Assembly (NCBI RefSeq): GCF_054482525.1
Contig: NZ_CM137006.1
Direction: 5' to 3' (one strand)
DNA length: 64,000 nt
The notes below the pieces were generated by a model that did no database searches, was not told where the DNA came from, and saw nothing but the letters and a program-made list of their open reading frames with translations. The translations under genes were made by a program, and so were the position numbers. Positions 9,379 to 48,992 of this stretch are shown piece after piece; positions within the stretch are counted from its first letter, which is position 1; each line of letters opens with the position of its first letter.

Positions 9379-10062
9379 ATGACTGAATGGCTTAATGCAC
9401 ATTTTGGTGCAGACGCAGCTACCTATCTTAGCTTATTAGTCGGCGTACTGGCACTGTTTGGTATTGGGGGCGGTGTTACATATAGAATCAGACAGCAAAA
9501 CAACATAAAACAGAAGGCAAAGAAAACCGAGGGTGATGTGAACCAGGCCGGGCGGGATATTAATCAGACCACCAACGTTTACCACACATCCAATGAATCT
9601 ACTGAGGACCCTGTAAAAAAAAAGCAAGATGAACATGATCTGAAGATAATCGACCAGATCCTTGAATTGCTGCCTTATGAGGATACTACTCAATGGGTTG
9701 AGCAGAGCTACCTGAGCGGTATACGGCAAGATGTTTGCTTAAACATTGAAAAAGCTGAAAAATTTAGCGGTGAAAAGTATCGGTTATTCAATACTGAAGT
9801 GAATGGTGCGAAAGACGCTTTTTTGGACGCTATGACCGCATACGTAGATAGTACGCTACCATTTATGAGTGTTGATTACCCGAACAGAAAGCCAGTGATG
9901 CTAAGCCTTCCCCATGACTGGAAGAGTAAGAGTGTTGAATCGGAGGCAAACTTCCGCTTTCATCAGCAAAATGTGCGTGAAACATCGGGGGGGATGATTG
10001 CGCGCTATGAGGATTTTGTCAGGACATTTAAGGCTCATGGATTCATAAGCGATAAACTGTAA
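9379..10062 (+). CDS. Membrane-anchored hypothetical protein (227 aa; one N-terminal TM helix, cytoplasmic domain unknown)
   Basis: ORF with plausible SD (taaggacatagttcaaATG). TM segment LSLLVGVLALFGIGGGVTY followed by a Lys-rich linker. No recognisable domain. Confidence 0.5.
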   Translation: MTEWLNAHFGADAATYLSLLVGVLALFGIGGGVTYRIRQQNNIKQKAKKTEGDVNQAGRDINQTTNVYHTSNESTEDPVKKKQDEHDLKIIDQILELLPYEDTTQWVEQSYLSGIRQDVCLNIEKAEKFSGEKYRLFNTEVNGAKDAFLDAMTAYVDSTLPFMSVDYPNRKPVMLSLPHDWKSKSVESEANFRFHQQNVRETSGGMIARYEDFVRTFKAHGFISDKL

Positions 10063-10233
10063 AGGCGCAGTGGGTCAGCGAACACCGCAACGACAGAACC
10101 GCGTAAGCGGTAAAATCAGCTTGTTAACTGGCGAGTTTATAGCCGTCCCTCCGGGGCGGCTTTTTTATGACTATAATCGACAGAATCACCTGAACGTCCA
10201 GGTGGGTTTCCCTGACAGGACGTCAAGGAATGT

Positions 10234-10270
10234 TCGCTTTGTGCCAGGAGCGGACGTTGCCAGCATTGAG
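10234..10270. repeat. 37-bp imperfect direct repeat, copy 2 (cgctttgtgccaggagcggacgttgccagcattgagt)
   Basis: Pairs with 8871-8907. Confidence 0.6.
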
Positions 10271-10416
10271 TTTTCAGTTTTCAAAGGTATATCTTTAGAT
10301 TTAGTTCACTTAGAATGAGCGTGTTAAAGTTTTCGGTTATGTGAGTATATTGAACATAACAAATAAACAATAATTTTTGTATTCCATTTAAGATATAAAA
10401 AAGAGGGATTTGAGTT

Positions 10417-11202
10417 ATGTACGATTATAGTTTTTTACTTACTCCATCTACAGGATTTGTTAAAGGATTATGTGGAGTTTGGTCGAATGATTTCTCTATA
10501 AATGATGATTCTGACTCTGATTTAGGGCAAACAGATATTCATTTACTTTCATCTCCTCATTTGAATATCATATCCGACCCAAATGAATTGGCTTCCAAGT
10601 TAAAAGGTTTGTTGATGCTCATGAACGGCGCACTTAGCGTTCTTTATGGTTTTGAAAGATATCAATCTTTTGGTCCTCTTTCTATTTCTGGAAGTGAAGG
10701 CATTAATTACTCGGAAATATGCGGCTTTAAATCAATGGATGTAACTCAGGTAAATCCCTTTAATTTCCATGACATACAGCAACCACACCCTCGCGCTGAT
10801 AATTTTTCACGATTAATTAATTTATCATCTAAACATGAATCCTTACGTGTTGTTTTAGGTATGTGTGCCTTAGGTTATGATTGGGTTAATCTTTATCGTT
10901 TGTGGGAAACAATTAGAGAATATGTATATGATAAATATGTGAAAGGTATACTAAATTTTCCCGACGCTTATAAAGGCAAGAAATATCAGAGAGATAAAGT
11001 AATTAGCATGGCTTTTAATATTGATGAAAAGGAAATCAGCAGATTCACGGGCACTGCTAATAGCTTTGAACTGTTAGGGTATCTTGCGAGACATGGAAAG
11101 GGAAGTTCCGGAGGGATATTAAAAAATCCGATGTCAAGAGTTGACGCAAGCAATTTCGTACACAAAGCAACTTACAAATATTGTAAGTTATTTTTGATGT
11201 AA
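10417..11202 (+). CDS. Hypothetical protein (261 aa) in a sharply AT-rich segment; orphan accessory gene
   Basis: Long ORF in a low-GC block (10.3-11.3 kb) with RBS-like aaaaagagggatttgagttATG. No recognisable motifs. Confidence 0.45.
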   Translation: MYDYSFLLTPSTGFVKGLCGVWSNDFSINDDSDSDLGQTDIHLLSSPHLNIISDPNELASKLKGLLMLMNGALSVLYGFERYQSFGPLSISGSEGINYSEICGFKSMDVTQVNPFNFHDIQQPHPRADNFSRLINLSSKHESLRVVLGMCALGYDWVNLYRLWETIREYVYDKYVKGILNFPDAYKGKKYQRDKVISMAFNIDEKEISRFTGTANSFELLGYLARHGKGSSGGILKNPMSRVDASNFVHKATYKYCKLFLM

Positions 11203-11363
11203 GTAAAAAGTTGAAGCTATAATACTCAAAGTATCGAAAACTACGTTCGTCGTGCACTCGAAAACAATATGCTTATTGTGTCTGCACTAATTACTCAAGG
11301 TCCGAGAAAAATGGCGAAGCTCATCTTTTTCAGGCTTCGCCAACTTGAGTTATTGGTTAAAAT

Positions 11364-12116
11364 TCATTTAGGAATAATAGAATGCAATTCGTGACTCACC
11401 TGGATTTCATAGTGTTTCAATAGTTCTCCGATGTTAATTCCTACTACCTTACGAACTGCGCCGAGGGAGAAGTTAAGCTCCTCAATGCCCGGCCGATCTG
11501 GCGTTGAATTCATATAGTGTCGGCACGCACGGACAATTGACTCGACGATCAACGATAGCGGAGACTCAGGTGCAATCTCGGAGCGAATCGCCGTAAGAGA
11601 GAGTCGGAGCTCCTTCAAAGAATCCGAGACTCGTGCTGGATCCTCTTGAGCATATGGCAGATAAAGAGAACTCTTGTCTTCCAATAAATGGATCACCCGC
11701 AGAGCAATTTTCTCGTCTGGGCGATGCGATAGAAATTGAAACATTAGCCTCTTTCCTCCCTCCAAGCACTCCTTCATTAGTGATTCGTGGTCACGTTTCC
11801 ATTTTCGCAAATACTCGGCGGGGTAGCCCATACCGCCATTCTTATCAACTAAATCAGCACAAGCTCCGCACAACCATATAGCATTTTTTATGCTCTTCCG
11901 CTCTGTTTCTGACTGAGACATGTCATAGCGCGGTCCGCCAGGGCTCGCCGCGCAGATATGCGCCGCCTCACCCGTCTTGATAGAAAGATTTTCCGCCAAT
12001 TGATCCGGGCCGATTGTTACCCTATGACAAGAGGGATTGCTACAAATATATGTAGCGCGCTCTGCTACCTTACCTACAACGCTTGGAGGAAAGTTGTGCC
12101 TATTTGTCTTGGTCAT
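11364..12116 (-). CDS. HNH-endonuclease-domain protein (250 aa) with uncharacterised C-terminal domain
   Basis: N-terminal CSNPSCHR ... AAHICAASPGGPRYD ... NAIWLCGACADLVD resembles an HNH/zinc-finger nuclease core (CxxC..H..N..CxxC). Confidence 0.5.
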   Translation of the reverse strand: MTKTNRHNFPPSVVGKVAERATYICSNPSCHRVTIGPDQLAENLSIKTGEAAHICAASPGGPRYDMSQSETERKSIKNAIWLCGACADLVDKNGGMGYPAEYLRKWKRDHESLMKECLEGGKRLMFQFLSHRPDEKIALRVIHLLEDKSSLYLPYAQEDPARVSDSLKELRLSLTAIRSEIAPESPLSLIVESIVRACRHYMNSTPDRPGIEELNFSLGAVRKVVGINIGELLKHYEIQVSHELHSIIPK

Positions 12117-12868: not shown

Positions 12869-13089
12869 GGATTGTAGTCATAGAGAAGTCTCCTGTAACG
12901 GTTTTCAGGAAGCTAATCCCGACGCCTGATTTTGCAGGCGCGGAAGGAGAAGATACTGCGGCCATTAATCCGCCACAAGGCATTTACGTGCATAAATCGC
13001 GCAGTCAAATCCGACTCCCACTGTAGTTCTTGAACCTGATACCACATTTAGCTAATTTAGCTAACTTATCTATTATACCAGTGGTTGCC

Positions 13090-13335
13090 ATGAATATGAA
13101 TGAAGACGAGATTTATCGCCATATCCGGCAGGCACTTTCCAGTGCGCCTCGTAACCAGTACACCGTCGAGCTGCACCTGCAAATGATTAAATATGCCGAC
13201 AAACTGGAACACATTACGGCAAAAGCCTTTTGCGAAGGCACTGGTCTGAACCAGAGCCTCGGTACCGAATTCAGCAAAATGCGTAACTTAACCCATCGGT
13301 TAAAGGCCGCCGGTCTGAATACCGATCTGCTGTAA
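13090..13335 (+). CDS. Small hypothetical protein (about 81 aa) immediately upstream of hsdM
   Basis: MNMNEDEIYRHIRQALSSAPRNQYTVELHLQMIKYADKLEHITAKAFCEGTGLNQSLGTEFSKMRNLTHRLKAAGLNTDLL. Co-oriented with hsdM and 40 bp upstream of it. The ORF track extends to 13030. Confidence 0.4.
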   Translation: MNMNEDEIYRHIRQALSSAPRNQYTVELHLQMIKYADKLEHITAKAFCEGTGLNQSLGTEFSKMRNLTHRLKAAGLNTDLL

Positions 13336-13374: not shown

Positions 13375-15813
13375 ATGGCTATCAAAAAAACCGAACTCTA
13401 TTCTTCCCTGTGGGCAAGCTGCGACGAACTGCGTGGCGGGATGGACGCCAGCCAGTACAAAGACTATGTACTGACCCTGCTGTTTATGAAGTACGTTTCC
13501 GATAAGTATAAAGGCGATCCTTACGGGATGATCGTGATACCCAAAGGAGCCAGCTTTGACGATATGGTTGCGCTGAAAAATGACAAAGAGATCGGCGACA
13601 AAATCAACAAAATCATCCACAAGCTGGCGGAAGAGAACGGCCTGAAGGGCGTCATCGACGAAGCCGACTTTAACGACGAAGATAAGCTCGGCAAAGGCAA
13701 GGAAATGATTGACCGCCTGAGCAAGCTTGTCGGTATCTTTGAAGGGTTAAATCTCTCCAGCAACCGGGCCGAAGGCGACGATCTGCTGGGCGATGCCTAT
13801 GAATATCTGATGCGTCACTTCGCAACCGAATCCGGTAAGAGTAAAGGGCAGTTTTACACTCCAGCGGAGGTGTCACGTATTCTGGCGAAGGTGATTGGTA
13901 TTACTCCCGATACTCCGCAAGATGCAACGGTTTATGACCCAACCTGTGGCTCTGGTTCGCTGCTGTTGAAAGTGAATGATGAAGCCCGGCGCGGACTGTC
14001 GATTTTCGGCCAGGAGATGGATAACGCTACCAGTGCGCTGGCGCGGATGAACATGATTCTGCATAACAATGCCACCGCGAAAATCTGGCAGGGCAATACG
14101 CTGAGCGATCCGCAGTGGAAAGAGGCGAACGGCAAACTGAAAGCCTTCGATTTTGCCGTGGCGAACCCGCCTTTTTCCAATAAAAACTGGACCAACGGGC
14201 TGACGCCGAAAAAAGATCCGTTTGAACGCTTCGGCTGGGGTATTCCGCCGGAAAAAAACGGCGATTATGCTTTTTTGTTGCATATCATTAAAAGCCTGAA
14301 AAGTACCGGCAAAGGCGCGGTGATCCTGCCCCACGGCGTACTGTTTCGCGGTAACGCCGAAGCGAATATCCGTGAAAATCTAATCAAGCAGGGCTATATC
14401 AAAGGCGTTATTGGTTTGCCAGCCAACCTGTTTTACGGCACCGGCATCCCGGCGTGCATCATTGTGATTGATAAAGAGCACGCCCACAGCCGCAAAGGCA
14501 TTTTTATGATCGACGCCAGCCGGGGCTTTATCAAAGATGGCAACAAGAACCGCCTGCGTAGCCGAGATATTCACCGCATTGTGGACGTGTTCAACCATCA
14601 GCGAACGGTACCTGGCTACAGCCGGATGGTGCCCTCCAGCGAGATCGCCGGAAATGATTACAACCTGAATATTCCTCGCTATATCGAGAGCGGCGAGCCG
14701 GAAGATTTACACGATCTGACCGCGCACTTACAGGGCGGTATTCCGGCACGCGATGTGGATGCTTTGCAAGATTACTGGCGGGTATTCCCTGCCCTGCGCA
14801 ACGTGCTGTTTGCTGACGACCGTCCCGGTTACTGTCGGGCGCAGGTGAACGCGCAACAGGTGAAACCGACCATTCTGGCGCATCAGGAGTTTAAGGATTT
14901 TGCCACCCGCAGCCTGCTACCGTTTAAAGCGTGGGTGAAAGAGGCAAGTCTGGAAGAGATTCGCAAAGGTGATAAACCCAAAGCGCTAATCCACGATATC
15001 AGCGAAATGCTATTGGCGCAGTACGCCAACAGTGAGTTGCTGAACAAATACAGCGTGTACCAGATCCTGATGGATTACTGGACTGATGTCATGCAAGACG
15101 ATGTGTATGCGATTATGCAGGATGGCTGGCAAGCCGCCGCGCAAATCCGCGAGCTTCAGCCGGTGAAAGGCAAAGATGGCAAAAACATCTGGAAAGAAAC
15201 GCACGATTTCGAGTTTACCAAACGGCGCTACAAGGCCGATGTGCTGCCCCGTTCGCTGGTGGAAATTCGCTGTTTCCCGGAACTGCTGGATGCGCTGAAC
15301 CGCGCGCAGGAGCGCAGTGAAGAAGCCAGTCGTCAGCTAGTGGAATTCATCGAGGAGCAGGCAGGTGAAGAGGATCTGCTGGCCGAGGCGAAGAACGATA
15401 AAGATAAGGTGACGCAAAAGCTGGTGAATGCCCGTCTAGCACAGTTAAAGAAAACCACTGCCGGCCCAGATGAGCTGGCAGTGCTGAACCGCTGCCTGGC
15501 GCTAATTAAGGCCGAAGCCAGTGCGAAAAAAGCGCTGAAAGCCGCACAAGAAGCGCTGGATCGGGCGGTGTTTAAACATTATCCCACGCTGGATGAAGCA
15601 GCGATTAAAACGCTGGTAGTGCAGGATAAGTGGCTGGCAACGTTGCAGGCAGGGATCAAGGCGGAGATTGAGCGTATTACCCAGCAACTGGCGTCGCGCG
15701 TAAAGGAGCTGGAAGAGCGTTATGCTGAACCGTTGCTAGCGCTTGAAGCCTCCGTTGAGGCGTTGAGCGAGAAAGTGGCCGAGCATTTGCGGGCGATGGG
15801 GCTGGAGTGGTGA
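13375..15813 (+). CDS. hsdM: Type I restriction-modification system methyltransferase subunit M (812 aa, with long C-terminal coiled-coil extension)
   Basis: HsdM N-terminal domain (YKDYVLTLLFMKYVSD), SAM motif DPTCGSGSLL, catalytic NPPF (FAVANPPFS). About 300 extra C-terminal residues rich in A/E/K/L. Confidence 0.9.
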   Translation: MAIKKTELYSSLWASCDELRGGMDASQYKDYVLTLLFMKYVSDKYKGDPYGMIVIPKGASFDDMVALKNDKEIGDKINKIIHKLAEENGLKGVIDEADFNDEDKLGKGKEMIDRLSKLVGIFEGLNLSSNRAEGDDLLGDAYEYLMRHFATESGKSKGQFYTPAEVSRILAKVIGITPDTPQDATVYDPTCGSGSLLLKVNDEARRGLSIFGQEMDNATSALARMNMILHNNATAKIWQGNTLSDPQWKEANGKLKAFDFAVANPPFSNKNWTNGLTPKKDPFERFGWGIPPEKNGDYAFLLHIIKSLKSTGKGAVILPHGVLFRGNAEANIRENLIKQGYIKGVIGLPANLFYGTGIPACIIVIDKEHAHSRKGIFMIDASRGFIKDGNKNRLRSRDIHRIVDVFNHQRTVPGYSRMVPSSEIAGNDYNLNIPRYIESGEPEDLHDLTAHLQGGIPARDVDALQDYWRVFPALRNVLFADDRPGYCRAQVNAQQVKPTILAHQEFKDFATRSLLPFKAWVKEASLEEIRKGDKPKALIHDISEMLLAQYANSELLNKYSVYQILMDYWTDVMQDDVYAIMQDGWQAAAQIRELQPVKGKDGKNIWKETHDFEFTKRRYKADVLPRSLVEIRCFPELLDALNRAQERSEEASRQLVEFIEEQAGEEDLLAEAKNDKDKVTQKLVNARLAQLKKTTAGPDELAVLNRCLALIKAEASAKKALKAAQEALDRAVFKHYPTLDEAAIKTLVVQDKWLATLQAGIKAEIERITQQLASRVKELEERYAEPLLALEASVEALSEKVAEHLRAMGLEW

Positions 15814-17147
15814 TGGTGGATTTAATGGTGAATGAGCAACGGTCGAGTACGGCGGGGAAAGATGTGCCTGCGGGGTATAAACTGACTGAGGTGGGCGTGA
15901 TTCCTGAGGATTGGGATTGCGTACCATTTGGTAATCTGTTTAAAACAAACACAAAGAAAAAAAAAGTCAGCGATTATGAGCTAGTTTCATTTATTGGGAT
16001 GCAAGATGTTAGTGAAGATGCACAATTAAAAAATAATACTCAACTTCCTTTTAAAGAAGTTAAAAGTGGTTTTACTTACTTTGAAAAAGGGGATGTTTTA
16101 TTAGCTAAAATAACCCCTTGTTTTGAAAATGGAAAAGGATGTCATACCGCTGATTTACCTACTAATGTAGGTTTTGGGAGTACGGAATTTCATGTATTAA
16201 GGGAAAATGAAGACTCCGATTCTCGCTTCATCTATTTTTGGACAACTGATAAAAAATTCAGAGCATCACTGGAATCTGAAATGGTGGGAAGTGCGGGACA
16301 CCGTCGTGTGCCGCTAGTTGCTATAGAAAAATATTTGATTCCATGTCCCCCAAATTTGCAAGAGCAAAGTGCTATTGCTGATTCATTATCTGATATTAAT
16401 AATTTTATTCTAGCTCTAGAAAAGCTTATCGTTAAAAAACAAGCCATTAAAACCGCTACTATGCAGCGACTACTGACTGGTAAAACCCGTTTGCCACAGT
16501 TTGCGTTGCGCAAAGATGGCTCTGCTAAGGGATATAAAAAGAGCGAGTTGGGGGAGATTCCTGAAGATTGGAATTGTATTAATCTTGGTGAGCTAGGTAA
16601 TTGCATTATTGGGTTAACTTACAAACCTGAAGATACATCTGATTATGGTACATTGGTATTACGCTCATCCAACATTCAAAATAATCACTTAGCTTATGAT
16701 GATAACGTCTTCGTCAGCATAGAACCACCTGAGCGCACAATTGTGAAAGAAGGTGATATCTTGGTATGTGTAAGAAATGGCAGTCGCCAACTTATTGGCA
16801 AATGCGCATTAATTGACAAAAATGCGCAGGGCTCAGCATTCGGTGCATTTATGTCAGTATTCCGAACTGATATATATGGATTTACATTTCACCAATTCCA
16901 GTCTGATATTATTCAAAAGCAAATCGCTGAAGTTATGGGTGCCACTATCAATCAGATAACTAACAAAGATATGTTGGGCTTTAAAATCCCATTACCTGAA
17001 AATACAGAAGAACAAGCCGCCATCGCCGCCATCCTCTCCGATATGGACAAGGAAATCCAGATCCTGCAACAGCGTCTGGACAAAACCCGCCAGCTTAAGC
17101 AAGGGATGATGCAGGAACTGTTAACCGGGAAAATCCGCTTAATATAG
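15807..17147 (+). CDS. hsdS: Type I R-M specificity subunit S (two target-recognition domains)
   Basis: Conserved central and C-terminal repeats ...ATMQRLLTGKTRLPQF... and ...MMQELLTGKIRLI typical of HsdS. Start overlaps the hsdM stop. Confidence 0.85.
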   Translation: MVMVDLMVNEQRSSTAGKDVPAGYKLTEVGVIPEDWDCVPFGNLFKTNTKKKKVSDYELVSFIGMQDVSEDAQLKNNTQLPFKEVKSGFTYFEKGDVLLAKITPCFENGKGCHTADLPTNVGFGSTEFHVLRENEDSDSRFIYFWTTDKKFRASLESEMVGSAGHRRVPLVAIEKYLIPCPPNLQEQSAIADSLSDINNFILALEKLIVKKQAIKTATMQRLLTGKTRLPQFALRKDGSAKGYKKSELGEIPEDWNCINLGELGNCIIGLTYKPEDTSDYGTLVLRSSNIQNNHLAYDDNVFVSIEPPERTIVKEGDILVCVRNGSRQLIGKCALIDKNAQGSAFGAFMSVFRTDIYGFTFHQFQSDIIQKQIAEVMGATINQITNKDMLGFKIPLPENTEEQAAIAAILSDMDKEIQILQQRLDKTRQLKQGMMQELLTGKIRLI

Positions 17148-17159
17148 AAGGGAAAGCAC

Positions 17160-17816
17160 ATGGCTTATGATTACAGCGCCAGCCTCAACCCGCAAAAAGC
17201 TCTGATCTGGCGTATCGTCCATCGGGACAATATCCCGTGGATTCTGGATAACGGGCTGCACTGCGGCAACAGTCTGGTGCAGGCGGAAAACTGGATCAAT
17301 ATCGGCAACCCGGAGCTGATCGGCAAGCGTGCCGGGCATCCGGTACCTGTCGGAACGGGCGGGACACTGCATGACTATGTGCCGTTTTATTTTACCCCCT
17401 TCTCGCCAATGCTGATGAACATCCACAGCGGGCGCGGCGGCATTAAGCAACGCCCCAATGAGGAGATCGTTATTCTGGTCAGCAACTTGCGAAACGTGGC
17501 AGCACACGACGTACCCTTCGTGTTTACCGACAGCCATGCTTACTATAACTGGACCAACTACTACACCAGTCTGGATAGTCTGGACCAGATCGACTGGCCC
17601 ATTTTGCAGGCACGGGACTTTCGCCGCGATCCAGACGATCCGGCTAAATTTGAACGCTATCAGGCAGAGGCGCTAATCTGGCAACACTGCCCGATCTCTC
17701 TGCTGGATGGGATAATTTGTTACAGCGAAGAGGTCAGGTTACAATTAGAACAATGGCTGTTTCAGCGTAATCTAACAATGTCCGTTCACACACGGGCTGG
17801 ATGGTACTTCTCATGA
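17160..17816 (+). CDS. darT: DarT DNA ADP-ribosyltransferase toxin (DUF4433)
   Basis: 218 aa, [38 protein letters not shown].... Matches the DUF4433/DarT family as found in EPEC E. coli (from memory). Followed with an ATGA overlap by a macrodomain gene. Confidence 0.75.
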
Positions 17817-18880
17817 TCACATATACACAAGGCAATTTACTGGACGCACCGGTGGAAGCTCTGGTGAATACGGTTAATACCGTCGGTGTCATGGGGAAAG
17901 GCATCGCGTTGATGTTTAAAGAGCGCTTCCCCGAAAATATGAAAGTCTATGCCCTCGCCTGCAAACAAAAGCAGGTGATCACCGGCAAAATGTTCATTAC
18001 CGAAACCGGGGAACTGATGGGACCGCGCTGGATTGTTAATTTTCCGACCAAACAGCACTGGCGCGCTGATTCCCGCATGGAGTGGATTGAAGATGGCTTG
18101 CAGGACTTACGCCGCTTTTTGATTGAAGAGAACGTGCAGTCCATCGCCATTCCACCACTGGGCGCAGGCAACGGTGGTTTGAACTGGCCGGACGTTCGGG
18201 CGCAGATTGAATCTGCCCTTGGCGACCTTCAGGACGTTGATATCCTGATTTACCAACCGACTGAAAAATACCAGAACGTTGCCAAAAGCACTGGCGTAAA
18301 AAAGCTCACTCCCGCCAGAGCCGCCATCGCTGAACTGGTGCGTCGCTACTGGGTATTGGGGATGGAGTGCAGCCTACTGGAAATCCAGAAACTGGCCTGG
18401 CTGTTACAACGCGCCATTGAGCAGCATCAACAGGACGATATCCTCAAACTGCGGTTTGAAGCTCACTATTATGGCCCCTATGCGCCCAATCTGAACCATC
18501 TGCTTAATGCGCTGGACGGCACCTATCTTAAAGCCGAGAAACGCATCCCGGACAGCCAACCGCTGGATGTGATCTGGTTTAACGATCAGAAAAAAGAACA
18601 CGTTAATGCGTATCTGAACAACGAAGCCAGAGAGTGGCTACCTGCGCTGGAGCAGGTCAGCCAGTTAATTGACGGCTTTGAATCGCCGTTTGGTCTGGAG
18701 TTGCTGGCAACCGTAGACTGGTTGCTGAGCCGTGGCGAATGTCAACCAACGCTGGATTCCGTTAAGGAAGGGCTGCACCAGTGGCCTGCGGGCGAACGCT
18801 GGGCCAGCCGTAAGTTGAGGCTGTTTGATAATAATAATCTGCAATTTGCCATTAACCGCGTAATGGAGTTCCATTGCTGA
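17813..18880 (+). CDS. darG: DarG antitoxin (N-terminal macrodomain ADP-ribosylglycohydrolase + C-terminal DarT-binding domain)
   Basis: [40 protein letters not shown]... is a classic macrodomain N-terminus. The ATG at 17813 overlaps the darT TGA at 17814-17816. The ORF track starts at 17801. Confidence 0.75.
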
Positions 18881-18898: not shown

Positions 18899-21800
18899 TT
18901 GAGTACCGTGGGCCAGCGCGAACGCGCCACACAGCAGCGTCTGATTCAGTTTTTTGTTGAAGATTTAGGTTACCGCCATCTGAGTCACCGCACCGGGTAC
19001 ACCGGGAACAGCAACATCGACACTAATATACTGAGCGCGTGGCTAAAACGGCGCGGCGTTAATGATACGTTGATCACCCGGGCGTTGCGGCAACTGGATT
19101 CCGCCGCCGCTCTGGGCGAAGGCAAAAAACTCTATTACGCCAATAAAGAGGTCTATCGCCTGCTGCGTTACGGCGTGAAAGACAAAGAAGGCGCAGGCGA
19201 GCAGAACCAAACCGTGTGGCTGATTGACTGGGCCAACCCACAAGCCAATGATTTCGCCATCGCCGATGAGGTGACGGTCAAAGGCGAGTACTGCAAGCGC
19301 CCGGATCTGGTGCTGTACGTTAACGGCATTGCGCTGGGCGTGATTGAACTTAAGCGTTCGTCAGTGCACGTCAGCGAAGGCATCCGGCAGAATCTCGATA
19401 ATCAAAAGAAAACCTTTATCCGCGATTTCTTCACCACTATGCAGTTAGTGATGGCGGGCAACGATACGCAGGGCCTGCGCTACGGCACCATCGAAACCCC
19501 GGAAAAATACTATCTGGAGTGGAAAGAAGATAATCCAGGCGACTATACACATAAACTCGACTTTCATTTAAGTCGTCTGTGTAGCAAATCCAGGCTGTTG
19601 GATATCGTCCATAATTACATTGCCTTTGATGTCGGGGTGAAAAAACTCTGCCGCCATAATCAGTTCTTCGGCGTCGAGGCGGCTAAACAACATATTGCCC
19701 GTCGTGAAGGCGGTATTATCTGGCACACACAGGGATCGGGTAAAAGCCTGACGATGGTCTGGCTGGCGAAGTGGATCCGTGAAAATGTGCCAAACTCCCG
19801 CGTGTTGATTGTGACTGACCGCACCGAACTGGATGAACAGATCGAAAGCGTGTTTATGGGCGTGAATGAAGATATTTATCGCACCTCCAGCGGCAACGAT
19901 CTTATCGCAACGCTCAATCATCCTAACCCGTGGCTCATTTGCTCGCTGGTGCATAAATTTGGTCGTCGCAGCGAAGCTGAAGACAATGCGGCTACCGACG
20001 CCTTTATCACCGAATTACAGCAGTCCCTGACGAAAACATTCCGCGCCAAAGGCGATCTGTTTGTTTTTGTGGACGAGTGCCACCGCACACAATCCGGCAA
20101 GCTGCATAACGCCATGACTGCCATTCTGCCGGACGCCCTGTTTATCGGTTTTACCGGCACACCGCTGATGAAGAAAGATAAGAAGAAGTCGGTTGAGGTG
20201 TTCGGCCCTTATATCCATACCTATAAATTTGATGAAGCGGTGGCCGACGGTGTGGTGCTGGATCTGCGCTACGAGGCACGCGATATTGACCAGTATCTGA
20301 CATCAGAGAAAAAGGTCGATGACTGGTTTGAAGCCAAGACTCGCGGTTTGTCGAATTTAGCCAGGACCCAGCTTAAGCAAAAGTGGGGATCAATGCAGAA
20401 GCTGCTCTCCAGCAAGTCGCGGCTGGAGCAGATCGTTAACGACATTTTGCTGGATATGGATACCCGTCCACGCCTGATGGACGGGCGCGGCAACGCCATG
20501 CTGGTATGCAGCAGTATCTATCAAGCCTGCAAGGTTTACGAGATGTTCAGCCAGACCGAGCTGGCAGGAAAAGTAGCGATTGTGACCAGCTATCGCCCCG
20601 ATGCCGCCAGCATCAAAGGCGAAGAAACGGGCGAAGGGTTAACGGAGAAACTCTCTAAACACGCCACCTATCGTAAAATGTTGGCTGACTATTTTGAACA
20701 AAGTGAAGAGAAGGCCGCCGCACGCATTACCGAGTTCGAGCGGGAAATGAAACAGCGTTTTATTGAAGAGCCGGGGCAAATGCGCCTGCTTATCGTGGTG
20801 GATAAGCTGCTGACTGGCTTTGACGCGCCGTCCGCCACCTATCTCTACATTGATAAAACCATGACCGACCATACGCTGTTTCAGGCGATTTGTCGGGTGA
20901 ACCGGCTGGACGGTGAGGATAAAGAGTATGGCTATATTATCGATTATAAAGATCTGTTCCGTTCGCTGGATAAAGCGATTACCGATTACACCACGGGCGC
21001 GTTTGATGATTACGATCGGGACGATGTGGCCGGGTTGCTGAAAGACAGGCTGGAGCAGGCGCAACTGGATCTCGACAGCGCGCTGGAGATGGTTCGCAGC
21101 TTATGTGAACCCGTCAAAACCCCGCGCAGCCTGCTGGACTATCAGCACTATTTTTGCGGTGAATCAGGAGAGAATCAGACTTCGTTAAACGAAAAAGAGG
21201 CGCTGCGCCTGACATTTTACCAGTGCGTCGCCCGTCTGCTACGCGCTTATGCCAGCATCGCCAATGAAATGCCGGAAGCAGGCTACACTGCCGAAGAGGT
21301 AGAGAGCATTCGCGCCGAAGTCGCTGAATTCGAAAAACTGCGCTATGAGATTAAGCTGACCAGCGGCGATCTTCTGGATATGAAGCGCTTTGAACCCGCT
21401 ATGCGTCATTTACTGGATATGTATGTTCGCGCCGATGGTAGCGAAGTGCTGATGGATTTTGAAGAGTTAAGTCTGATTGAACTGATTGTCGAGAAAGGCT
21501 TGGCGGCGACCGTCGCCCTGCCGGATGATATCCGTAATAATCAGGATGCGATGGCGGAAACCATCGAAAACAACGTGCGCAAAACCATCGTGGATGAAAA
21601 CCCGGTTAACCCAAAATACTATGGACGCATGTCGCAGCTGCTGGATGAACTGATTACCCTTCGCCGACAAAATGCGCTCAATTATCAGCAGTATCTGGAA
21701 CGTATCCGCGATTTGTGTAAACAGGTCATCCGCCCGGAGCAAACCGCCGGAGCGTGCTACCCTGCCACCATGGATACACAAGCAAAGCGCGCCTTCTATG

Positions 21801-21994
21801 ATAACTTCGGCCACGACGAGGTACTGGCGACCCGCATAGATACGACGATTCGCTATACCAAAAGGGCAGAGTGGATTGGCGATCGTTTTAAAGAACGGGA
21901 AATTGCCAACGCATTACGTGAAGAGACCGCCAGCTATAATATTGATATTGATGAGGTGATAGCGCTTGCCCGTCAGCAGAAGGAATATCACTGA
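18899..21994 (+). CDS. hsdR: Type I restriction enzyme R subunit (SF2 helicase/translocase + nuclease)
   Basis: 1031 aa; Walker A TQGSGKSLTM, DEAH box VFVDECHRTQ, helicase motifs III-VI. TTG start at 18899 with AGGAG 7 nt upstream. Confidence 0.9.
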   Translation: MSTVGQRERATQQRLIQFFVEDLGYRHLSHRTGYTGNSNIDTNILSAWLKRRGVNDTLITRALRQLDSAAALGEGKKLYYANKEVYRLLRYGVKDKEGAGEQNQTVWLIDWANPQANDFAIADEVTVKGEYCKRPDLVLYVNGIALGVIELKRSSVHVSEGIRQNLDNQKKTFIRDFFTTMQLVMAGNDTQGLRYGTIETPEKYYLEWKEDNPGDYTHKLDFHLSRLCSKSRLLDIVHNYIAFDVGVKKLCRHNQFFGVEAAKQHIARREGGIIWHTQGSGKSLTMVWLAKWIRENVPNSRVLIVTDRTELDEQIESVFMGVNEDIYRTSSGNDLIATLNHPNPWLICSLVHKFGRRSEAEDNAATDAFITELQQSLTKTFRAKGDLFVFVDECHRTQSGKLHNAMTAILPDALFIGFTGTPLMKKDKKKSVEVFGPYIHTYKFDEAVADGVVLDLRYEARDIDQYLTSEKKVDDWFEAKTRGLSNLARTQLKQKWGSMQKLLSSKSRLEQIVNDILLDMDTRPRLMDGRGNAMLVCSSIYQACKVYEMFSQTELAGKVAIVTSYRPDAASIKGEETGEGLTEKLSKHATYRKMLADYFEQSEEKAAARITEFEREMKQRFIEEPGQMRLLIVVDKLLTGFDAPSATYLYIDKTMTDHTLFQAICRVNRLDGEDKEYGYIIDYKDLFRSLDKAITDYTTGAFDDYDRDDVAGLLKDRLEQAQLDLDSALEMVRSLCEPVKTPRSLLDYQHYFCGESGENQTSLNEKEALRLTFYQCVARLLRAYASIANEMPEAGYTAEEVESIRAEVAEFEKLRYEIKLTSGDLLDMKRFEPAMRHLLDMYVRADGSEVLMDFEELSLIELIVEKGLAATVALPDDIRNNQDAMAETIENNVRKTIVDENPVNPKYYGRMSQLLDELITLRRQNALNYQQYLERIRDLCKQVIRPEQTAGACYPATMDTQAKRAFYDNFGHDEVLATRIDTTIRYTKRAEWIGDRFKEREIANALREETASYNIDIDEVIALARQQKEYH

Positions 21995-22710
21995 TGCCAA
22001 TCATGCAAATAGGCTCGTTACACTTGCTGGTCAACCGTAAGGCGATTAAGAATCTGCATATCAGCGTGCTGCCGCCTGATGGCAAAGTACGCGTTTCAGC
22101 GCCGGAACATATGACGGAGACGGCGATTCGTATGGCGGTTGCTTCACGCTTTCGCTGGATCAGAAAACAGCAGCAGGATTTCGCCAGACAGCCTCGTCAA
22201 TCAGAGAGGGAAATGGTCAGCGGAGAGTGCCACTATCTTTGGGGCCGAAGATATCGCCTACTTGTGATTGAGCGTCACGGGCGTCACGAAGTAAAAGTTG
22301 CAGGAAATAATAAGCTCCAGCTTTATGTTCAACCAGGAACCCGTGATGAAAATAAGGCATTGGCGTTAAGTGAATTTTATCGACATGAACTAAAACAGCA
22401 GGTGGCTAAGCTTCTACCTGAATGGCAGGACCGAATCGGTGTTCCCCTAACATTCTGGGGCATCAAAAAGATGAAAACCTTTTGGGGCACCTGTAACACT
22501 ACAACAAAACGAATCTGGCTCAATCTGGAGCTAATTAAGAAGCCGCCGGAGTGTCTGGAGTATATTCTGGTGCATGAACTGGTTCATCTTCTGGAACGTC
22601 ACCATAATGCTCGCTTCCGGTTGCATATGGATCGGTTTATTCCTGACTGGCGTGAGCGTCGGGATTTGTTAAATAATATGCCGTTAGCGTTTGAGGCATG
22701 GGAGTATTGA
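21994..22710 (+). CDS. M48-family/YgjP-like (DUF45) zinc metallopeptidase commonly associated with type I R-M operons
   Basis: HExxH motif (LVHELVHLLERHH). Start overlaps the hsdR stop (TGATG). Confidence 0.7.
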   Translation: MPIMQIGSLHLLVNRKAIKNLHISVLPPDGKVRVSAPEHMTETAIRMAVASRFRWIRKQQQDFARQPRQSEREMVSGECHYLWGRRYRLLVIERHGRHEVKVAGNNKLQLYVQPGTRDENKALALSEFYRHELKQQVAKLLPEWQDRIGVPLTFWGIKKMKTFWGTCNTTTKRIWLNLELIKKPPECLEYILVHELVHLLERHHNARFRLHMDRFIPDWRERRDLLNNMPLAFEAWEY

Positions 22711-27349: not shown

Positions 27350-28065
27350 CCCTAACAGGCGCACACGATCTGACATTTGCATCCAACTTCGTTACTTACG
27401 GTCCGTAAACGGGCTGCCCGGACAGGGAATCGATAACTGCTCTCCCATTTTATCCTCTTCAAGCTGGTGCTTTATGTAATCCTGTATCTTCGCCGTGTTC
27501 TTACCCACTGTATCGACGTAGTCCCCCCTGCACCAGAACTCCCTGTTCCTGTATTTGAATTTCAAATCACCAAACTGCTCGTAAAGCATCAGACTGCTTT
27601 TCCCTTTCAGATATCCCATAAACCCGGATACGCTCATTTTGGGCGGGATCTCCACAAGCATATGGATATGATCTGCACAGCATTCAGCTTCCAGAATCCG
27701 TACGCTTTTCCACTCACACAGCTTTCTCAAAATACTGCCTGTTGCTCTACGCTTCTCTCTGTAGAACACCTGTCTTCGGTATTTTGGCGCAAAAAACTAT
27801 GTGATATTTACAGTTCCATCGGGTGTGCGCTAAGCTCTTTTCGTTCCCCATTGGGACCCCCTTTTGATTTCTTGTTTGACACTTGCAGTTGCCAGACCGC
27901 AAGGTGTTTTAACAAATCAAAAGGGGTTTTAATAACTGGCTCAAAGCTGAAAGCTTTCCGGAACCCCCAGCCTAGCTGGGAGTTTTCTGTGCACAAAAAA
28001 ACCCTGTAAAAAACTTACAGGGGTATAAGGCTTAGCCTAACTTGCGTCTGTTGCATGGTGCCGGG
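27350..28065. mobile_element. IS200 copy (IS200/IS605 family), boundaries approximate
   Basis: Contains a Y1 transposase TnpA gene on the - strand and a leader hairpin (ccctgtaaaaaacttacaggg at 28003-28024). Size is consistent with the roughly 0.7 kb IS200. Confidence 0.65.
27392..27851 (-). pseudogene. tnpA: IS200 tnpA (Y1 HUH transposase) inactivated by a +1 frameshift
   Basis: From ATG at 27851: MGNEKSLAHTRWNCKYHIVF. A single extra T in a T-run (gttttttgcgcc) shifts the frame. The downstream frame restores ...PKYRRQVFYREKRRATGSILRKLCEWKSVRILEAECCADHIHMLVEIPPKMSVSGFMGYLKGKSSLMLYEQFGDLKFKYRNREFWCRGDYVDTVG..., i.e. canonical IS200 TnpA. Confidence 0.7.
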
Positions 28066-28620
28066 TGCCTCCCGGTGAATTCAGTCGGTGTCACTGAACC
28101 CGCGTAGGCTTCGCTCATAACATAATAAATGCTATGTACACCAGTCGCCCCACCGCACAGGGGGATTCACCACACGGCGCACTTTTTAACAAATATCCCT
28201 CCGGCCAGACAATAATAAACATAATGAATTGTGATCTTCTTAACAGTTTTAAAGTGTTACAGATAACATGCCAAGTAATTGCTTGTTTTTTCATCAATAG
28301 GAAGACCACACCAACAACCCCAGCTATCAGCCAGAACCGACATTATCCGGCTGATAAAATCTACCATCACTCCAACACCAATCACCGCCTGTGCCAGATC
28401 GCGTTTCTCAAACTTTTTAATCTCTGTTGCCACTCTGCGGGTTTTCTTTTTGAATTTTGAAAATACCAAATATCGTGACGTTTCTTTGGGGGATGAGCTA
28501 TCAAGCGGGAACGATCTGCCTACAGAGAAAGTCAGCCAGACCACTCTGCAAATTATCCCCGAAAGGCTCTGTGGCTGATATGCGCCGGGCATGGCGCAAT
28601 GGGCCAGTGGCAGTGTGTGA

Positions 28621-28693
28621 TGGTGGCCCTTACTGGATTTGAACCAGCGACCAAGCGATTATGAGTCCTCTTACCACTGAGCTAAAGGGTTGG
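28621..28693 (-). pseudogene. Degenerate tRNA-Ile2 (ileX/ileY-type, CAU anticodon) relic
   Basis: Reverse complement AACCCTTTAGCTCAGTGGTAAGAG-GACTCATAATCGCTTGGTCGCTGGTTCAAATCCAGTAAGGGCCACCA matches tRNA-Ile(LAU). It lacks about 5 nt (CAGGC) at the D-stem/anticodon-stem junction and has two mismatched bases at the 5' acceptor end, so it is probably non-functional or an att remnant. Confidence 0.5.
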
Positions 28694-42932: not shown

Positions 42933-44369
42933 TCAACCTTTCTTAATCATTGCCGAAATTGCGCCACAGTCATGAAACTTATCAAAACCAGTGGTGCCTT
43001 TGATATATTCAGTAACCAGAGTACCAATAATCTTAACCGTTTCTTTGTTCGTTGTGATAAAGCCCAGTGGCATCGTTACAGGCAATATTTCGGGTTGAGA
43101 AATATGATAGATAACGGCAGATAACTCATCCTCAAGATGAAGGATCTCAACATTACCATCTAACAGCCCCTCAACTAGTCCTTTAGCGTACTCATGGAAT
43201 TGCCCAAGTTCATACTTCCACTGTCTGGCAACCCGAGCATCAGCTGCATCCCGGACAGGTACGTACAGCACCGGTTTATACAGCTGCTTATCCTTCGTAG
43301 CCGACTTGCTAAGAAAATTGCTCAGGCTTGAGATAAATCGAATGCTTTTTGACCAGTAGGGATCTGATGGTGCCACCCAGATGAACGGGCTACCTCCATA
43401 ATCAGTTTTATCTCTGATACGCTGATTGAGCGCTGGTGCCAGAGCTTTCTGCAGCTTTTCCCAGTTGTTTTTAGAATAAACCGGACCTAAAAAAGTCGTT
43501 CTGCCTGAGGACGAGTATTCTTCCAGTGCTTGCATATCTTTGATAAACAACGGATTAAGTCGATTCGTTTTAGAGTCAAACAGCTTAAGCGTAAGGTCAT
43601 CGTTAATGGATTGCATGGCCTTAAAAATACTCATGGTATTGTTATGCCGTGATAACCTGGCTATCTCAACAGCCATTAACTCATGAACACATTCCGAACT
43701 ATTTAACTGTTCATAGTCTTCACGCTCGACAGCCTTACCATCGCTATCCATTTTAAATTCCGTTGTTAAACGGAGTGGTATTTGCCGCAGCTTATTAACA
43801 GAATTAACGGTATAGATAGAAGGTTGTTCTTTTCCGACCTGAACCTGCAGGTGAGACAGGTAACCTTTATCCAGGATTTGATTAAACTGGTATTGAAAGT
43901 GCTTCTCAACCAGTTTCTCACTTTGAGAAATGTTGTTGTCATCAACCTTTAATGTTACCCCTCCCCTCCAGTGGTCCTGAAAAGCCTGGTTGCTGAAGCA
44001 ACTAAATGTGGCTAAATCAAAGGATAAGGTACAGCCACTGTCCTGAATAGTTGAAAGATGCGGTATCTCGCCAACCTCTGAAAAATAGCCATTTGATTTG
44101 TCTGTTAAGGCCAGTCTGCCGTCTGAGGAGAGCGTCAATTCGCCACGCTGCACAAGATCGGAAATCGCCTCCTCTGTCTCACGGTGGGTCAGGCCGAAAT
44201 AGGTTGCTATTTGTGCTTTGCTCATCGAAGCTACATGAACAAGTCTCAGCACAAACTCCCGGATAAATGGCAGCCCCTTCTGGGAAACATAGGAAAACTG
44301 AATGTTAAACCTCTGTGCTGGCAGCAGGAAGTCAACCTCATGATAGGTAACTTTGTTATCAGATATCAT
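42933..44369 (-). CDS. Hypothetical 478-aa protein with N-terminal winged-HTH-like region; distal gene of the NERD-kinase-helicase operon
   Basis: ATG at 44369-44367 overlaps the TGA of the upstream giant ORF (ATGA coupling). Residues about 40-90 ([46 protein letters not shown]) look like a wHTH. I see no catalytic motif and no HxK PLD motif. Confidence 0.55.
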
Positions 44370-47300
44370 TTCTTTTTGCCTCCCTGCTGAGCAGAGAGGA
44401 ACCTGTATCCAGCTTCCTGACCTCGCTCAGCCATATAACTTACAACGTAGCCTAATGGCAATTCTTTATTGTTTCCCTTCCAGATATCGGCATTACCCAC
44501 AATCAACAGTCGATCCATTGCGCGTGACATCGCGACATTTATACGGTTTGGAACGCGTAAGAAACCTGGGCTATGCTGCTTATCCGAACGCGTCAGTGAC
44601 AGGATAATGATCCGATTTTCCTTTCCCTGATAACTGTCAACAGTGTCAATTTTAACAATGTCCTTAAATCCCTCGCTCCAGATTTCCTGATTGAATTTCT
44701 GACGGAGTAACCGCTTTTGTTCGGCATACATACATATCACGCCGATAGCGGCTTCATCTTTGCTAACAAGTTTTGAAAGCTTAGCGACAAATTCTTCATT
44801 CTCTGACACCTGTTTAAGAACAGAAATAATCTCGTCAGCTTCACATCGGTTGTAAATGCTTGTTCCGCGATCTTCAAGATGATGTGCTCGGTGGCCCTGA
44901 TTAGCAGTATCAAGCCAGGTTACAACGCTACGTAACGCTTCCGGAGCTTGCTGATAGACATCCGGAATTGCCCGTACTCCATTCAGAAGCTTCCCGTCAT
45001 AAAACGTCTTCGATACGAGATTACCAATCGGTGGAGCCATACGATACTGGGTCATCAAAGCTGCACTCGTCTGCGCACCATAAGCAGAGTTGAAGGCTCG
45101 GGCAAAGTCACTTCGTAATACCTCGTCAATTTCAGTGCGGGAGTTATTGATACCCAGCTTCCTCGCTAATGCCGCCTTGTGGGCATCTGAGTACAATGGA
45201 GGAAGCTGCATGTGGTCACCCACCAACAGGACACGCCGGGCTGACTGCATTGCAATGGCCAGCTCACTTGAAATCGAGCGCGCCGCCTCATCAATAATCA
45301 CCCAGTCATAGATATTCTCCTGAATGCCAATGTGCCCTTGTCCAATACCAACGCATGTGCCAGCCACTAACTGCCTGGAGCGCGAATAAAACTCGTCCAG
45401 GTTCACTCGCTCTCCCGACATAGCATCCTGCATATCACGGGATATTTTAGCTAATGCTTTTACTCGTCTTGCCTCATCAGGTCTGACACCATACTCTGTA
45501 CATAGCTTGGAAATCAGAATGTCTTTTGCTGCTGAGACCTTCACGCCATTGTCCAAGTTAATCCCATACTCCTGACTCAGCTTAGAGCGGATGGAAAAAT
45601 CGAGTTCGACTGCAATATCTTTCAGTTCATTGCTCTCATTTGAATCCGTTAAATTGTTAACCTGATAGAGCAATTTCTCAAGGTGATCGATTTGTCTGAA
45701 CAAATTGAGCTCTGCAAGAACAACACCCGAAATAAATCCCGGCTCAAGACCAATAGCTTCACTCAATGCTTCAACACGGTACTTAATTTCAGCATTGAAG
45801 AGTTCGCGCTTCTCTGTTGTGATTGCGTGTGAGTACACATCTTTTAAGCCAGGGGAAACGGCTCCCTCTCGGTTGCTGAACCTGACAACGTCCAACTCTG
45901 TACCAAGCCGGGAACAATGCTTTCTGATACGCTCGGCCGCTGTATTCACAGCCTCGTGTGACTGGCTGACCAGTAAAATGCGTTTGGTATTCTGTTTCTC
46001 GATCAGGTAGTGAACAAAGGCCGCGATGAACTCGGTTTTACCGGTCCCCGGTGGCCCCTGAAGCAGGGAGAGAGGGCCATTATTGACCAGTTTGTTAAAC
46101 GCCTTTCTTTGCTGTTCATTCAGACTGATCTTGTTTCCGTGCTGATCTTCACGGTCGTATCTGGCAAAATCGGTATCGCTGAGAGTGATACCATAATTTT
46201 GAGCCGCCTGTTTGCAGGATGGATCGAACAAGTCAATTAAGTCAGGCAGCACACTTTCTCGATCTAGGAGACGTTCCAGTGCGCGTTTACGTTTCTGATA
46301 AGATGCACGAGTCGGCCTTGTACGGAAGAAGACAATATCAGAATCCTTCAGCTTGAAGGCTGCTGAACTAACTTTGACAAGACGAATCTCTTTGAGCTCT
46401 GACTTCTTAAGTGACACTTCACCAATAAATCGCTCAACACCTTCCTGATCGACCTGTAAGGCTTCGACTTCATCACTACTTCTGAAAGCACCGAGTGGAT
46501 CAACATCAGCAGAGTAAGGGAGAAGAAGCTCTCCATGAGCATCTGCAACCGGGACCACTTCACCGCTGATTTCAATGTTTGGATAAGATTCTGTTTCAGT
46601 ATCCAGAATGGCGCGCCACAGTTTCACTGTTGGGATTTCCAGCACTTCTCTTAAAGAAGGTTCAAGCGTCTGCTTATCAAGCCTTGCAAAGGTATCTTTT
46701 AGCTGAAGCGTAAGTGGCTCTTGTACCTGAACATCTTCAGTTGCGGCAATCAACTCGATTGCCCGCGCAAAAGATTCTTCTTCATTAAGCAATACTGTCA
46801 ACGCCGACAGATCCTGCGGACTGCCGGGAATAATCTTGATGCCAGTATCAATTTCGAACTGGCTTTCATCAATATCTTGCTTACGAATTGTGACGCGAGC
46901 CCGTGGCCTGAAGCCATGAACCAGCGTCTTCTGATCTTTGTTGAACACCGCAGTAAAACTGCCACCAATCCCAGAGAAAGTCACATTTACTTCAGCTGGC
47001 GCTTTAGGATTTGACTTAACTTTGACATACAGATGCCCGTTATCAGGCAGAATAGAGATTATTTCATCGGCATTTCCTGCAGTAATCTCTATCAGGTCTT
47101 GTTCTGGCACCAGGTCATTACTATCTATCGCTTTTTTAAAGCGGCCTAAATCCTTAAACCCAAAAACCGGATCTTCCAGCTCTGCTCGGATAGCATTCGC
47201 GATTGTCGGATAAATGTCTGATTCCAGCCCCCATGACATGCCTAGCAACTCGCAGGACATCTTCATCACTGCATAGTTGTCACGTTCAAAAGAAGTACAA

Positions 47301-47557: not shown

Positions 47558-47736
47558 ATATAGGCTTGATGATTTTGATGCGATACCGAATTCACGAATT
47601 TGAGGTAGATACGTTGTTTTAACTGAAGAAAGCCGCTCAACCTGCTTTAAAAACTTCAGAACCTGGAAATTAATTGACGGATTGAACCGCCCCGGGAATC
47701 CTGGAGACTAAACTCCCTGAGAAAGAGGTAAACAGG

Positions 47737-48063
47737 ATGACTAAAAATACTCGTTTTTCCCCCGAAGTCCGTCAGAGGGCGATTCGTATGGTTCTGGAAA
47801 GTCAGGGCGAATATGACTCACAGTGGGCGGCAATTTGTTCCATTGCCCCAAAGATTGGCTGTACACCGGAGACTCTGCGTGTCTGGGTACGCCAGCATGA
47901 GCGGGATACCGGAGGCGGTGATGGCGGGCTCACCACCGCTGAACGTCAGCGTCTGAAAGAGCTGGAACGTGAAAATCGTGAACTGCGCCGCAGTAACGAT
48001 ATCCTTCGCCAGGCTTCCGCTTATTTTGCGAAGGCGGAGTTCGACCGCCTCTGGAAAAAATGA
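47737..48063 (+). CDS. IS629 OrfA (HTH transposase N-terminal protein)
   Basis: [60 protein letters not shown]..., as I recall IS629/IS1203 OrfA. Confidence 0.8.
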
Positions 48064-48950: not shown

Positions 48951-48992
48951 GTTCACAGATAAAACACTCTCCAGGAAACCCGGGGCGGTTCA

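Follow-up and report, generated by a model that had tools for sequence, protein, structure and literature searches.

What does a toxin-antitoxin pair do between the specificity and restriction genes of a type I restriction-modification (R-M) operon, and does such nesting amount to a layered phage defense? The question is raised by a 64,000-nucleotide stretch of contig NZ_CM137006.1 (RefSeq assembly GCF_054482525.1; hereafter the window, meaning the whole stretch analyzed), in which a darT-darG pair occupies positions 17160-18880, between hsdS and hsdR. A sequence-only reading of the window had proposed a layered defense locus with possible co-transcription and had noted that DarTG had been described inside hsd loci of Escherichia coli. 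Such a description does exist. The window is E. coli chromosomal DNA and, by its genes and their order (rptR-hsdM-hsdS-darT-darG-hsdR-M48), the locus is an E. coli copy of the RRDM island (RptR-RMS-DarTG2-M48), and this same seven-gene island has been published, and shown to defend against phage, in enteropathogenic E. coli (EPEC) O127:H6 E2348/69 (Zhang et al., Nucleic Acids Res 2025; PMC12255303). The system is thus already known, having been characterized experimentally and carrying the names darT and darG in RefSeq. Beyond the published literature that we consulted lie a two-repeat operator as the apparently common E. coli form, a different HsdS allele, and, within E. coli, a strict linkage of this hsd backbone to darTG. 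We consider it very probable that the island forms a single RptR-controlled operon providing a two-layer defense, namely restriction and DarT2-mediated abortive infection.

Gene order and identity with the EPEC island

The seven genes, all on the + strand, were compared one by one with the EPEC locus (NC_011601.1). The island opens with rptR (13096-13335), which encodes a 79-aa transcriptional repressor of the island (Pfam HTH_73, E = 3.5e-28; the same coding sequence is annotated in RefSeq), followed by hsdM (13375-15813), encoding the 812-aa methyltransferase subunit, and hsdS (15813-17147), encoding the specificity subunit, 444 aa when counted from the ATG at 15813, with an in-frame GTG at 15807. 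Next come darT (17160-17816; 218 aa), for the predicted DarT2 toxin, a thymidine ADP-ribosyltransferase acting on single-stranded DNA (ssDNA), and darG (17813-18880; 355 aa), for the predicted DarG2 antitoxin, which combines an N-terminal macrodomain acting as a DNA ADP-ribosylglycohydrolase with a C-terminal DarT-binding domain. The gene of the type I restriction endonuclease/translocase subunit, hsdR (18899-21994; 1031 aa, TTG start), precedes the last gene of the island, which encodes an M48/YgjP-like zinc metallopeptidase (21994-22710; Pfam YgjP-like, E = 1.4e-61). In the EPEC island the genes have the same order and orientation, and the products are 100% identical for DarG (WP_000634203.1) and M48 (WP_001122107.1), 99.5% for HsdR, 98.6% for DarT, 97.7% for HsdM, and 96.2% for RptR (WP_000343040.1), with HsdS, at 36.8%, as the outlier.

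Gene boundaries are tight throughout. The hsdM/hsdS and hsdR/M48 junctions, read directly from the sequence, are TGATG overlaps, and at 17813-17816 the ATG of darG lies within the TGA stop of darT (ATGA), giving three start/stop overlaps in the island; the gaps between hsdS and darT and between darG and hsdR measure 12 and 18 nt. The three overlaps are shared with EPEC, and the darG-hsdR gap is base-identical. The darT start is preceded by AAGGGA, and the hsdR TTG start at 18899 has AAGGAG 6 nt upstream, with the Pfam HSDR_N match beginning at residue 6 of the protein. A longer darG reading frame could begin at an ATG at 17801; the RefSeq annotation and the alignments to PDB and PADLOC entries all start at 17813. 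The RefSeq record of E. coli strain AH65 (NZ_CP058302.1) agrees exactly on where each gene starts and stops and uses the names darT and darG; over window positions 1-36800 it differs from the window by 28 mismatches, none of them inside 17160-18880.

These data bear out the earlier description of an ATGA-coupled, co-oriented darT and macrodomain darG pair inside the hsd unit, every coordinate of which was confirmed from the list of open reading frames (ORFs) and the raw sequence, as was the close spacing (hsdS stop at 17147, darT start at 17160, darG stop at 18880, hsdR start at 18899). The unit had been drawn as hsdM-hsdS-...-hsdR, which gives the order correctly and the extent too narrowly, since it also includes rptR with its operator and promoter upstream and the M48/YgjP-like gene downstream.

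Several differences from EPEC stand out. Both target-recognition domains of HsdS are replaced, the operator has two 9-bp repeats instead of three, DarT is substituted at positions 97, 139 and 213, where the window allele has Q97, D139 and A213, and the flanks are unlike: EPEC has IS3, IS100 and IS66 insertion sequence (IS) elements, whereas the window has a CP4-like island upstream and an IS600 remnant downstream.

The toxin and the antitoxin

DarT matches the Pfam DarT profile (PF14487) over positions 1-201 of 201 (E = 3e-53) and the PADLOC DarT model (E = 2e-74); among solved structures it matches the DarT proteins of Thermus (7omv, E = 1.6e-26) and Mycobacterium tuberculosis (7yk3_A, E = 2e-15). 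The conserved catalytic glutamate, on which the sequence-only reading had made its assignment depend, is present in this full-length protein as E170, within a QAEAL motif and aligned to the alanine of the Thermus E160A crystal construct. G49, R57, Y77 and H21 are likewise intact. In the biochemically characterized EPEC DarT, which recognizes TTT/TCT motifs in ssDNA versus TNTC for the Thermus enzyme, E170A is catalytically dead and G49D is an attenuated mutant (PMC7003065). The three substitutions relative to EPEC DarT fall in non-invariant columns of an alignment of six DarT sequences (alignment A1). As to the histidine of the ARTD H-Y-E motif, the Thermus and M. tuberculosis proteins have His at the equivalents of both 18 and 21, and the E. 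coli protein has R18 and H21; either position may be that of the motif histidine, and the case for DarT activity rests instead on near-identity to the active EPEC enzyme.

DarG is similarly complete, with a Pfam Macro match (E = 3e-21) and a full-length match to the PADLOC DarG model (E = 1e-127). Its first 152 residues match the DarG macrodomain structures 5m31 (E = 4e-55) and 5m3i (E = 1.5e-53), and residues 183-351 match the C-terminal DarT-binding chain of M. tuberculosis DarG (7yk3_B, E = 5e-13), the C-terminal domain being the part that binds DarT in EPEC (PMC7003065). The earlier reading had also hinged on the macrodomain not being degenerate; it is intact, with GAGNGG and with K80 in FPTKQHW, the catalytic lysine of DarG (PMC11543638). 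By residue count, K80 corresponds to K54 in the older numbering of a 330-aa EPEC DarG that begins at M27. None of the defects named in the sequence-only reading as fatal to its assignment was found in either protein. From the 98.6% identity of DarT and the complete identity of DarG to the tested EPEC proteins, we infer that DarT would be toxic and would ADP-ribosylate thymidine in ssDNA, and that DarG would reverse this modification.

Two DarTG subfamilies are distinguished by their antitoxins, which have a macrodomain in DarTG2 and a NADAR domain in DarTG1 (PMC11543638). Because its antitoxin is a macrodomain protein, the window pair is, on domain content, a DarTG2 and not a DarTG1 system. 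Comparison with both EPEC and E. coli C7 had been suggested at the outset; the EPEC pair is indeed the match, and C7 is excluded as a close relative because its system is DarTG1. The C7 system resembles the window pair in having a DarT-family ADP-ribosyltransferase that acts on ssDNA and serves in phage defense, and differs in its NADAR antitoxin and in targeting guanosine rather than thymidine (PMC11543638). The DarTG2 systems of Thermus aquaticus and M. tuberculosis (7omv, 5m31, 5m3i, 7yk3) share with it the DarT ADP-ribosyltransferase fold with its catalytic glutamate, the DarG macrodomain with K80, the C-terminal DarT-binding domain, and the toxin-then-antitoxin gene order. They differ in being distant in sequence (as the E-value for Thermus DarT indicates), in having His at position 18, where the window protein has Arg, and, in Thermus, in the ssDNA motif.

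The R-M genes and the HsdS allele

The DarTG pair had been described as nested in a type I R-M system, and that system is complete, with the motifs of all three subunits intact. HsdM matches Pfam N6_Mtase (E = 7e-104) and HsdM_N, and PADLOC MTase_I over its full length, and carries the S-adenosylmethionine-binding DPTCGSG at residue 188 and NPPF at 264. HsdR matches Pfam HSDR_N, SWI2_SNF2 and a T1R_D3-like domain, as well as full-length PADLOC REase_I; PD..ELK (135-152), QxxxY (191), GSGKS (279) and DECH (392) are all present, and its nearest solved relative is EcoR124I HsdR (E = 2e-35). HsdS is covered by Pfam Methylase_S in two stretches and by PADLOC Specificity_I (E = 3e-131).

Within an island otherwise 96-100% identical to that of EPEC, the HsdS allele stands apart: the N-terminal, central and C-terminal segments are kept, and the target-recognition domains between them are those of another allele. 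Since both of these domains differ, the window system is expected to recognize a different DNA sequence. In Xenorhabdus vietnamensis (L011), the best tblastn segment of the hsdS region shares up to 89% identity with the window allele.

Promoter and operator

Direct reading of the sequence places the island promoter and RptR operator at 13030-13064 (+ strand), upstream of rptR. The -35 box is TTGAAC (13030-13035) and the -10 box AGCTAATTT (13050-13058), and two 9-bp direct repeats, TTTAGCTAA, at 13047-13055 and 13056-13064, each with a TAGCTA palindrome, overlap the -10 box. In EPEC the promoter has been mapped experimentally, with the -35 box TTGAAC and a functional -10 box, AGCTAATTT, 14 bp downstream of it, and with three 9-bp TTTAGCTAA repeats, each holding the RptR-binding palindrome TAGCTA; RptR represses this promoter, and two repeats are enough for binding and repression (PMC12255303). 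The window promoter is homologous to it base for base, except for one clean 9-bp difference. Because two repeats suffice in the EPEC work, regulation by RptR is expected to be retained in the window.

The two-repeat form seems to be the common one in E. coli. A 131-nt promoter query found matches in 248 genomes of the E. coli sample described below. In 40 matches sampled across the ranking of these genomes, every full-length match spanned 131 nt in its record, so that none of those has a 9-bp third repeat, and only 10 records show the 90-95% identity that a 9-bp gap would produce. The three-repeat operator of EPEC would then be a minority form.

The seven genes are most likely one operon co-transcribed from the rptR promoter. 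In a consensus scan, which as a negative is weak, no internal promoter or terminator separating darTG or hsdR was found in the intergenic gaps of the island, and across the island as a whole promoter-like sites (13 versus 11.9 +/- 3.9 in shuffled sequences) and terminator-like sites (15 versus 11.9 +/- 3.7) occur at chance frequency. With clear gaps and scans at chance level, co-transcription is the most economical reading; beyond hsdM, and so for darTG and hsdR, it is a deduction, since the hsdM transcript is the one measured in the EPEC study.

Distribution in E. coli and in other species

Among 5426 complete E. coli genomes, the RRDM island, scored as present when at least 80% of its 9.8 kb was covered, was found in 247 (about 4.6%). 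A search with darTG alone matched 248 genomes of the same sample; identity over the pair reaches 99% or more in 243 of the 249 records that matched. We also looked in these genomes for the hsd backbone with an empty slot, using as query the 3' end of hsdM joined to the 5' end of hsdR; none of the 263 matching records brings the two halves within about 2 kb of each other, and this version of the backbone was therefore rejected for E. coli. It follows that the backbone in E. coli always has more than about 2 kb of cargo between hsdM and hsdR, and that there is no sign of recent darTG insertion or excision in this species.

In E. coli STEC2017-197 (H155; NZ_CP075663.1, 1216167-1217656) the darTG match comes in two pieces covering 88% of the query and is about 225 nt shorter; its darT is annotated as 'DarT family protein' and may represent a natural darT deletion.

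Outside E. coli the linkage is looser. A DarT scan of one genome per species yielded 31 loci, 26 of which had enough flanking sequence to be searched by tblastn with the seven window proteins. darTG lies between hsdS and hsdR in 9 of the 26. Six of these, all from Enterobacterales (L003, L005, L007, L011, L013 and L014), have the full RRDM set including rptR; two (L017 and L024) have the same hsd family with further cargo; and in one, from an Aquabacterium metagenome-assembled genome (L020), darTG is embedded in a distant hsd family of 31-34% identity. In the remaining 17, neither HsdM- nor HsdR-like sequence turned up within 10 kb, as far as tblastn with one hsd family, which could miss very divergent R-M genes, can tell, and some of their DarT proteins are 80-83% identical to that of the window. 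The M48 gene accompanies hsdR in other species, even where rptR was undetected.

Along the identity scale, embedded and free-standing darTG pairs interleave, which indicates that darTG2 is a mobile two-gene cassette, functional without hsd, that has entered the hsdS-hsdR slot on more than one occasion. The published count of darTG2 in 12 of 54 RptR-associated type I systems, and the suggestion that the hsdS-hsdR slot is a hotspot, are in line with this view (PMC12255303).

Several of the embedded loci hold additional genes. In Enterobacter sp. MGH 24 (L005, 9423-9998) and Dickeya oryzae (L013, 9423-9998) a further 191-aa ORF lies between hsdS and darT. The Enterobacter product is a divergent member of the DarT family (Pfam DarT, E = 2e-19; PADLOC DarT, E = 1e-33; 22% identical to DarT), keeps a glutamate aligned with E170, and has no match among PDB sequences; the Dickeya ORF was compared by coordinates and length. 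Judging by these ORFs, both islands may pair two DarT-like toxins with one DarG. Between hsdM and hsdS, L017 (1644-9780) and L024 (7014-9986) carry a YhcG/DUF1016 protein of the PD-(D/E)xK type (PADLOC PDC-S02); L024 has a MazF/PemK toxin as well, and L017 has two GmrSD-like (DUF262) proteins, a DUF1810 protein and a NERD-domain protein between hsdS and darT.

Genomic surroundings

Further defense genes lie elsewhere in the window. A Mokosh-type system (42933-50649, - strand) is part of the same genomic island. Its mkoB (42933-44369) matches PADLOC MkoB (E = 2e-151), and its mkoA is interrupted by a 1310-bp IS3-family insertion (47683-48992), which leaves the gene in two ORFs (44366-47557 and 48832-50649). 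Within the insertion are HTH_Tnp_1 and rve ORFs together with an ALIL pseudoknot (48018-48134); in AH65, mkoA is intact (1652 aa). Directly upstream of the RRDM island, at 9379-12116, are three unannotated genes. One of them (11364-12116, - strand) encodes a 250-aa product whose N-terminus resembles an HNH endonuclease (PADLOC PDC-M68A, E = 7e-24) and which also matches CBASS/SAVED-HNH effector models, with no Pfam match; the other two (9379-10062 and 10417-11202) gave nothing in Pfam or PADLOC.

The match between the window and AH65 ends at about 59788, just beyond a tyrosine integrase gene (about 58184-59386, - strand), and is followed by a single CRISPR-DR4 repeat (59843-59870), clpA (60084-62375) and clpS (62391-62711); this point looks like the edge of a large genomic island holding the defense genes. 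ARAGORN called no tRNA gene in the window. At 27861-28691 (- strand), Rfam STnc490 (143 bits) and STnc100 (136 bits) matches lie beside a frameshifted IS200/IS605 tnpA, together with a tRNA-like Rfam match (28624-28691) that is marginal, at 30.7 bits for a gathering score of 29, and was not called by ARAGORN.

A probable two-layer defense and its alternatives

In the working model, a sigma-70 promoter upstream of rptR would drive the island, and RptR dimers, bound to the repeats with TAGCTA that extend over the -10 box, would keep it repressed. In the first layer, HsdM2S would methylate host DNA at a site set by the strain's own HsdS, and HsdR2M2S would translocate and cut unmethylated incoming DNA. 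In the second, DarT2 would use NAD+ to ADP-ribosylate thymidine in ssDNA (at TTT/TCT in the EPEC enzyme) and thereby block replication. In the uninfected cell the DarG macrodomain, with K80 as its key residue, would strip the adduct while the C-terminal domain sequesters DarT; infection would upset the balance between DarT and DarG, replication would halt and the infection would abort. The two layers are presumably independent of each other. To this model the window itself contributes the set of genes with their order and spacing, the intact motifs, the near-identity of the products to those tested in EPEC, and the linkage seen across the population; the EPEC literature contributes the promoter, repression by RptR, phage protection and the biochemistry of DarT and DarG. 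The whole EPEC island protects against phages by up to seven orders of magnitude, clones without RptR control are toxic, and the hsdM transcript rises on phage infection (PMC12255303); DarTG2 systems are reported to give robust phage defense when put into E. coli (PMC11543638, PMC12255303). The layered defense proposed in the sequence-only reading is thus upheld overall, with phage protection taken from the EPEC copy (PMC12255303) and co-transcription deduced.

Several points weigh against this model. All functional evidence comes from the EPEC copy, and the window strain is known from its sequence. The published protection is that of R-M and DarTG together, and the transcript data concern hsdM, under the wording 'native promoter(s)' (PMC12255303). 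Weak internal sigma-70-like matches do occur, for example at 17717-17745 within darT, upstream of darG, at the chance frequency given above, and some may be real. Finally, with two repeats and a different HsdS, both the strength of repression and the target sequence may differ from those of EPEC.

Three other accounts of the locus differ mainly in the role that they give to DarTG. It might act chiefly as an addiction module that, through post-segregational killing, stabilizes the hsd island as part of a mosaic and mobile genomic island, with phage defense secondary. DarTG is a genuine toxin-antitoxin pair, and the toxicity of EPEC clones lacking RptR control accords with such a role, as do the mosaic surroundings (the IS600 remnant just downstream, and CP4-like genes, an integrase and other IS copies elsewhere in the window) and the constant association of darTG with its hsd backbone in E. 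coli. Against it stand the reported phage defense by DarTG2 in E. coli and the protection conferred by the EPEC island, and type I R-M systems are already somewhat resistant to loss by themselves; we regard addiction as the main function as unlikely, and since stabilization is compatible with defense it is a complement more than a rival. Decay of darTG into an inactive passenger of a functional R-M system can be all but dismissed. The shortened darT region of STEC2017-197 indicates that inactivation occurs, and the window DarT is three residues away from the tested protein; yet both ORFs run to full length and match their profiles from end to end, the catalytic and motif residues of DarT (E170, R57, Y77, H21) and DarG (K80, GAGNGG) are in place, the three substitutions lie in non-invariant columns, DarG is identical to the tested protein, and the pair is conserved at 99% identity or more in 243 of 249 E. 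coli records. We rejected pseudogenization on the full-length matches and the intact catalytic residues.

The remaining account takes the position of the pair as its starting point. In EcoprrI, a type I R-M locus, the anticodon nuclease PrrC is encoded in the equivalent slot, flanked by the homologues of hsdS and hsdR; it is not known to have a dedicated antitoxin and is reportedly kept latent by the R-M complex. By analogy, DarT or the DarT-DarG balance might be controlled by HsdMSR or M48, and fire when a phage anti-restriction protein disables R-M. The likeness lies in a second, suicidal defense effector in the hsdS-hsdR slot, a position confirmed for the window; the embedding recurs in at least two hsd families (that of the RRDM island and that of the Aquabacterium locus), other defense systems sense the anti-restriction protein Ocr, and the co-travelling M48 peptidase may take part in such control. 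DarT, however, has a dedicated antitoxin with two neutralizing mechanisms, and neither DarT nor DarG has a domain left unaccounted for that could dock onto Hsd subunits. Moreover, 17 of the 26 related loci lack HsdM- or HsdR-like sequence in their 10-kb surroundings, some with DarT close to that of the window, so that DarTG2 evidently works without an hsd partner. On the grounds of its own antitoxin and these hsd-free relatives we rejected assignment to a PrrC-type guardian family, and we hold coupling of this kind to be highly improbable. A broader notion, that the embedding is functional in some way, either because DarTG2 is a back-up released when anti-restriction proteins disable HsdMSR or because M48 connects the two layers, for instance through cleavage of RptR or DarG when a phage infects, also strikes us as improbable, if somewhat less so. 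The reading that we favor accordingly remains that of one operon with two layers of defense.

Biological meaning

The window holds a natural variant of a characterized system, with the same DarTG2, HsdR and M48, a different HsdS specificity, and an operator of two repeats. Its identification as such adds little, as the island has been published, validated and annotated. The prevalence of about 4.6% in E. coli, the absence there of a cargo-free hsd backbone and the frequent occurrence of hsd-free darTG in other genera may nevertheless guide experiments on whether the two layers cooperate.

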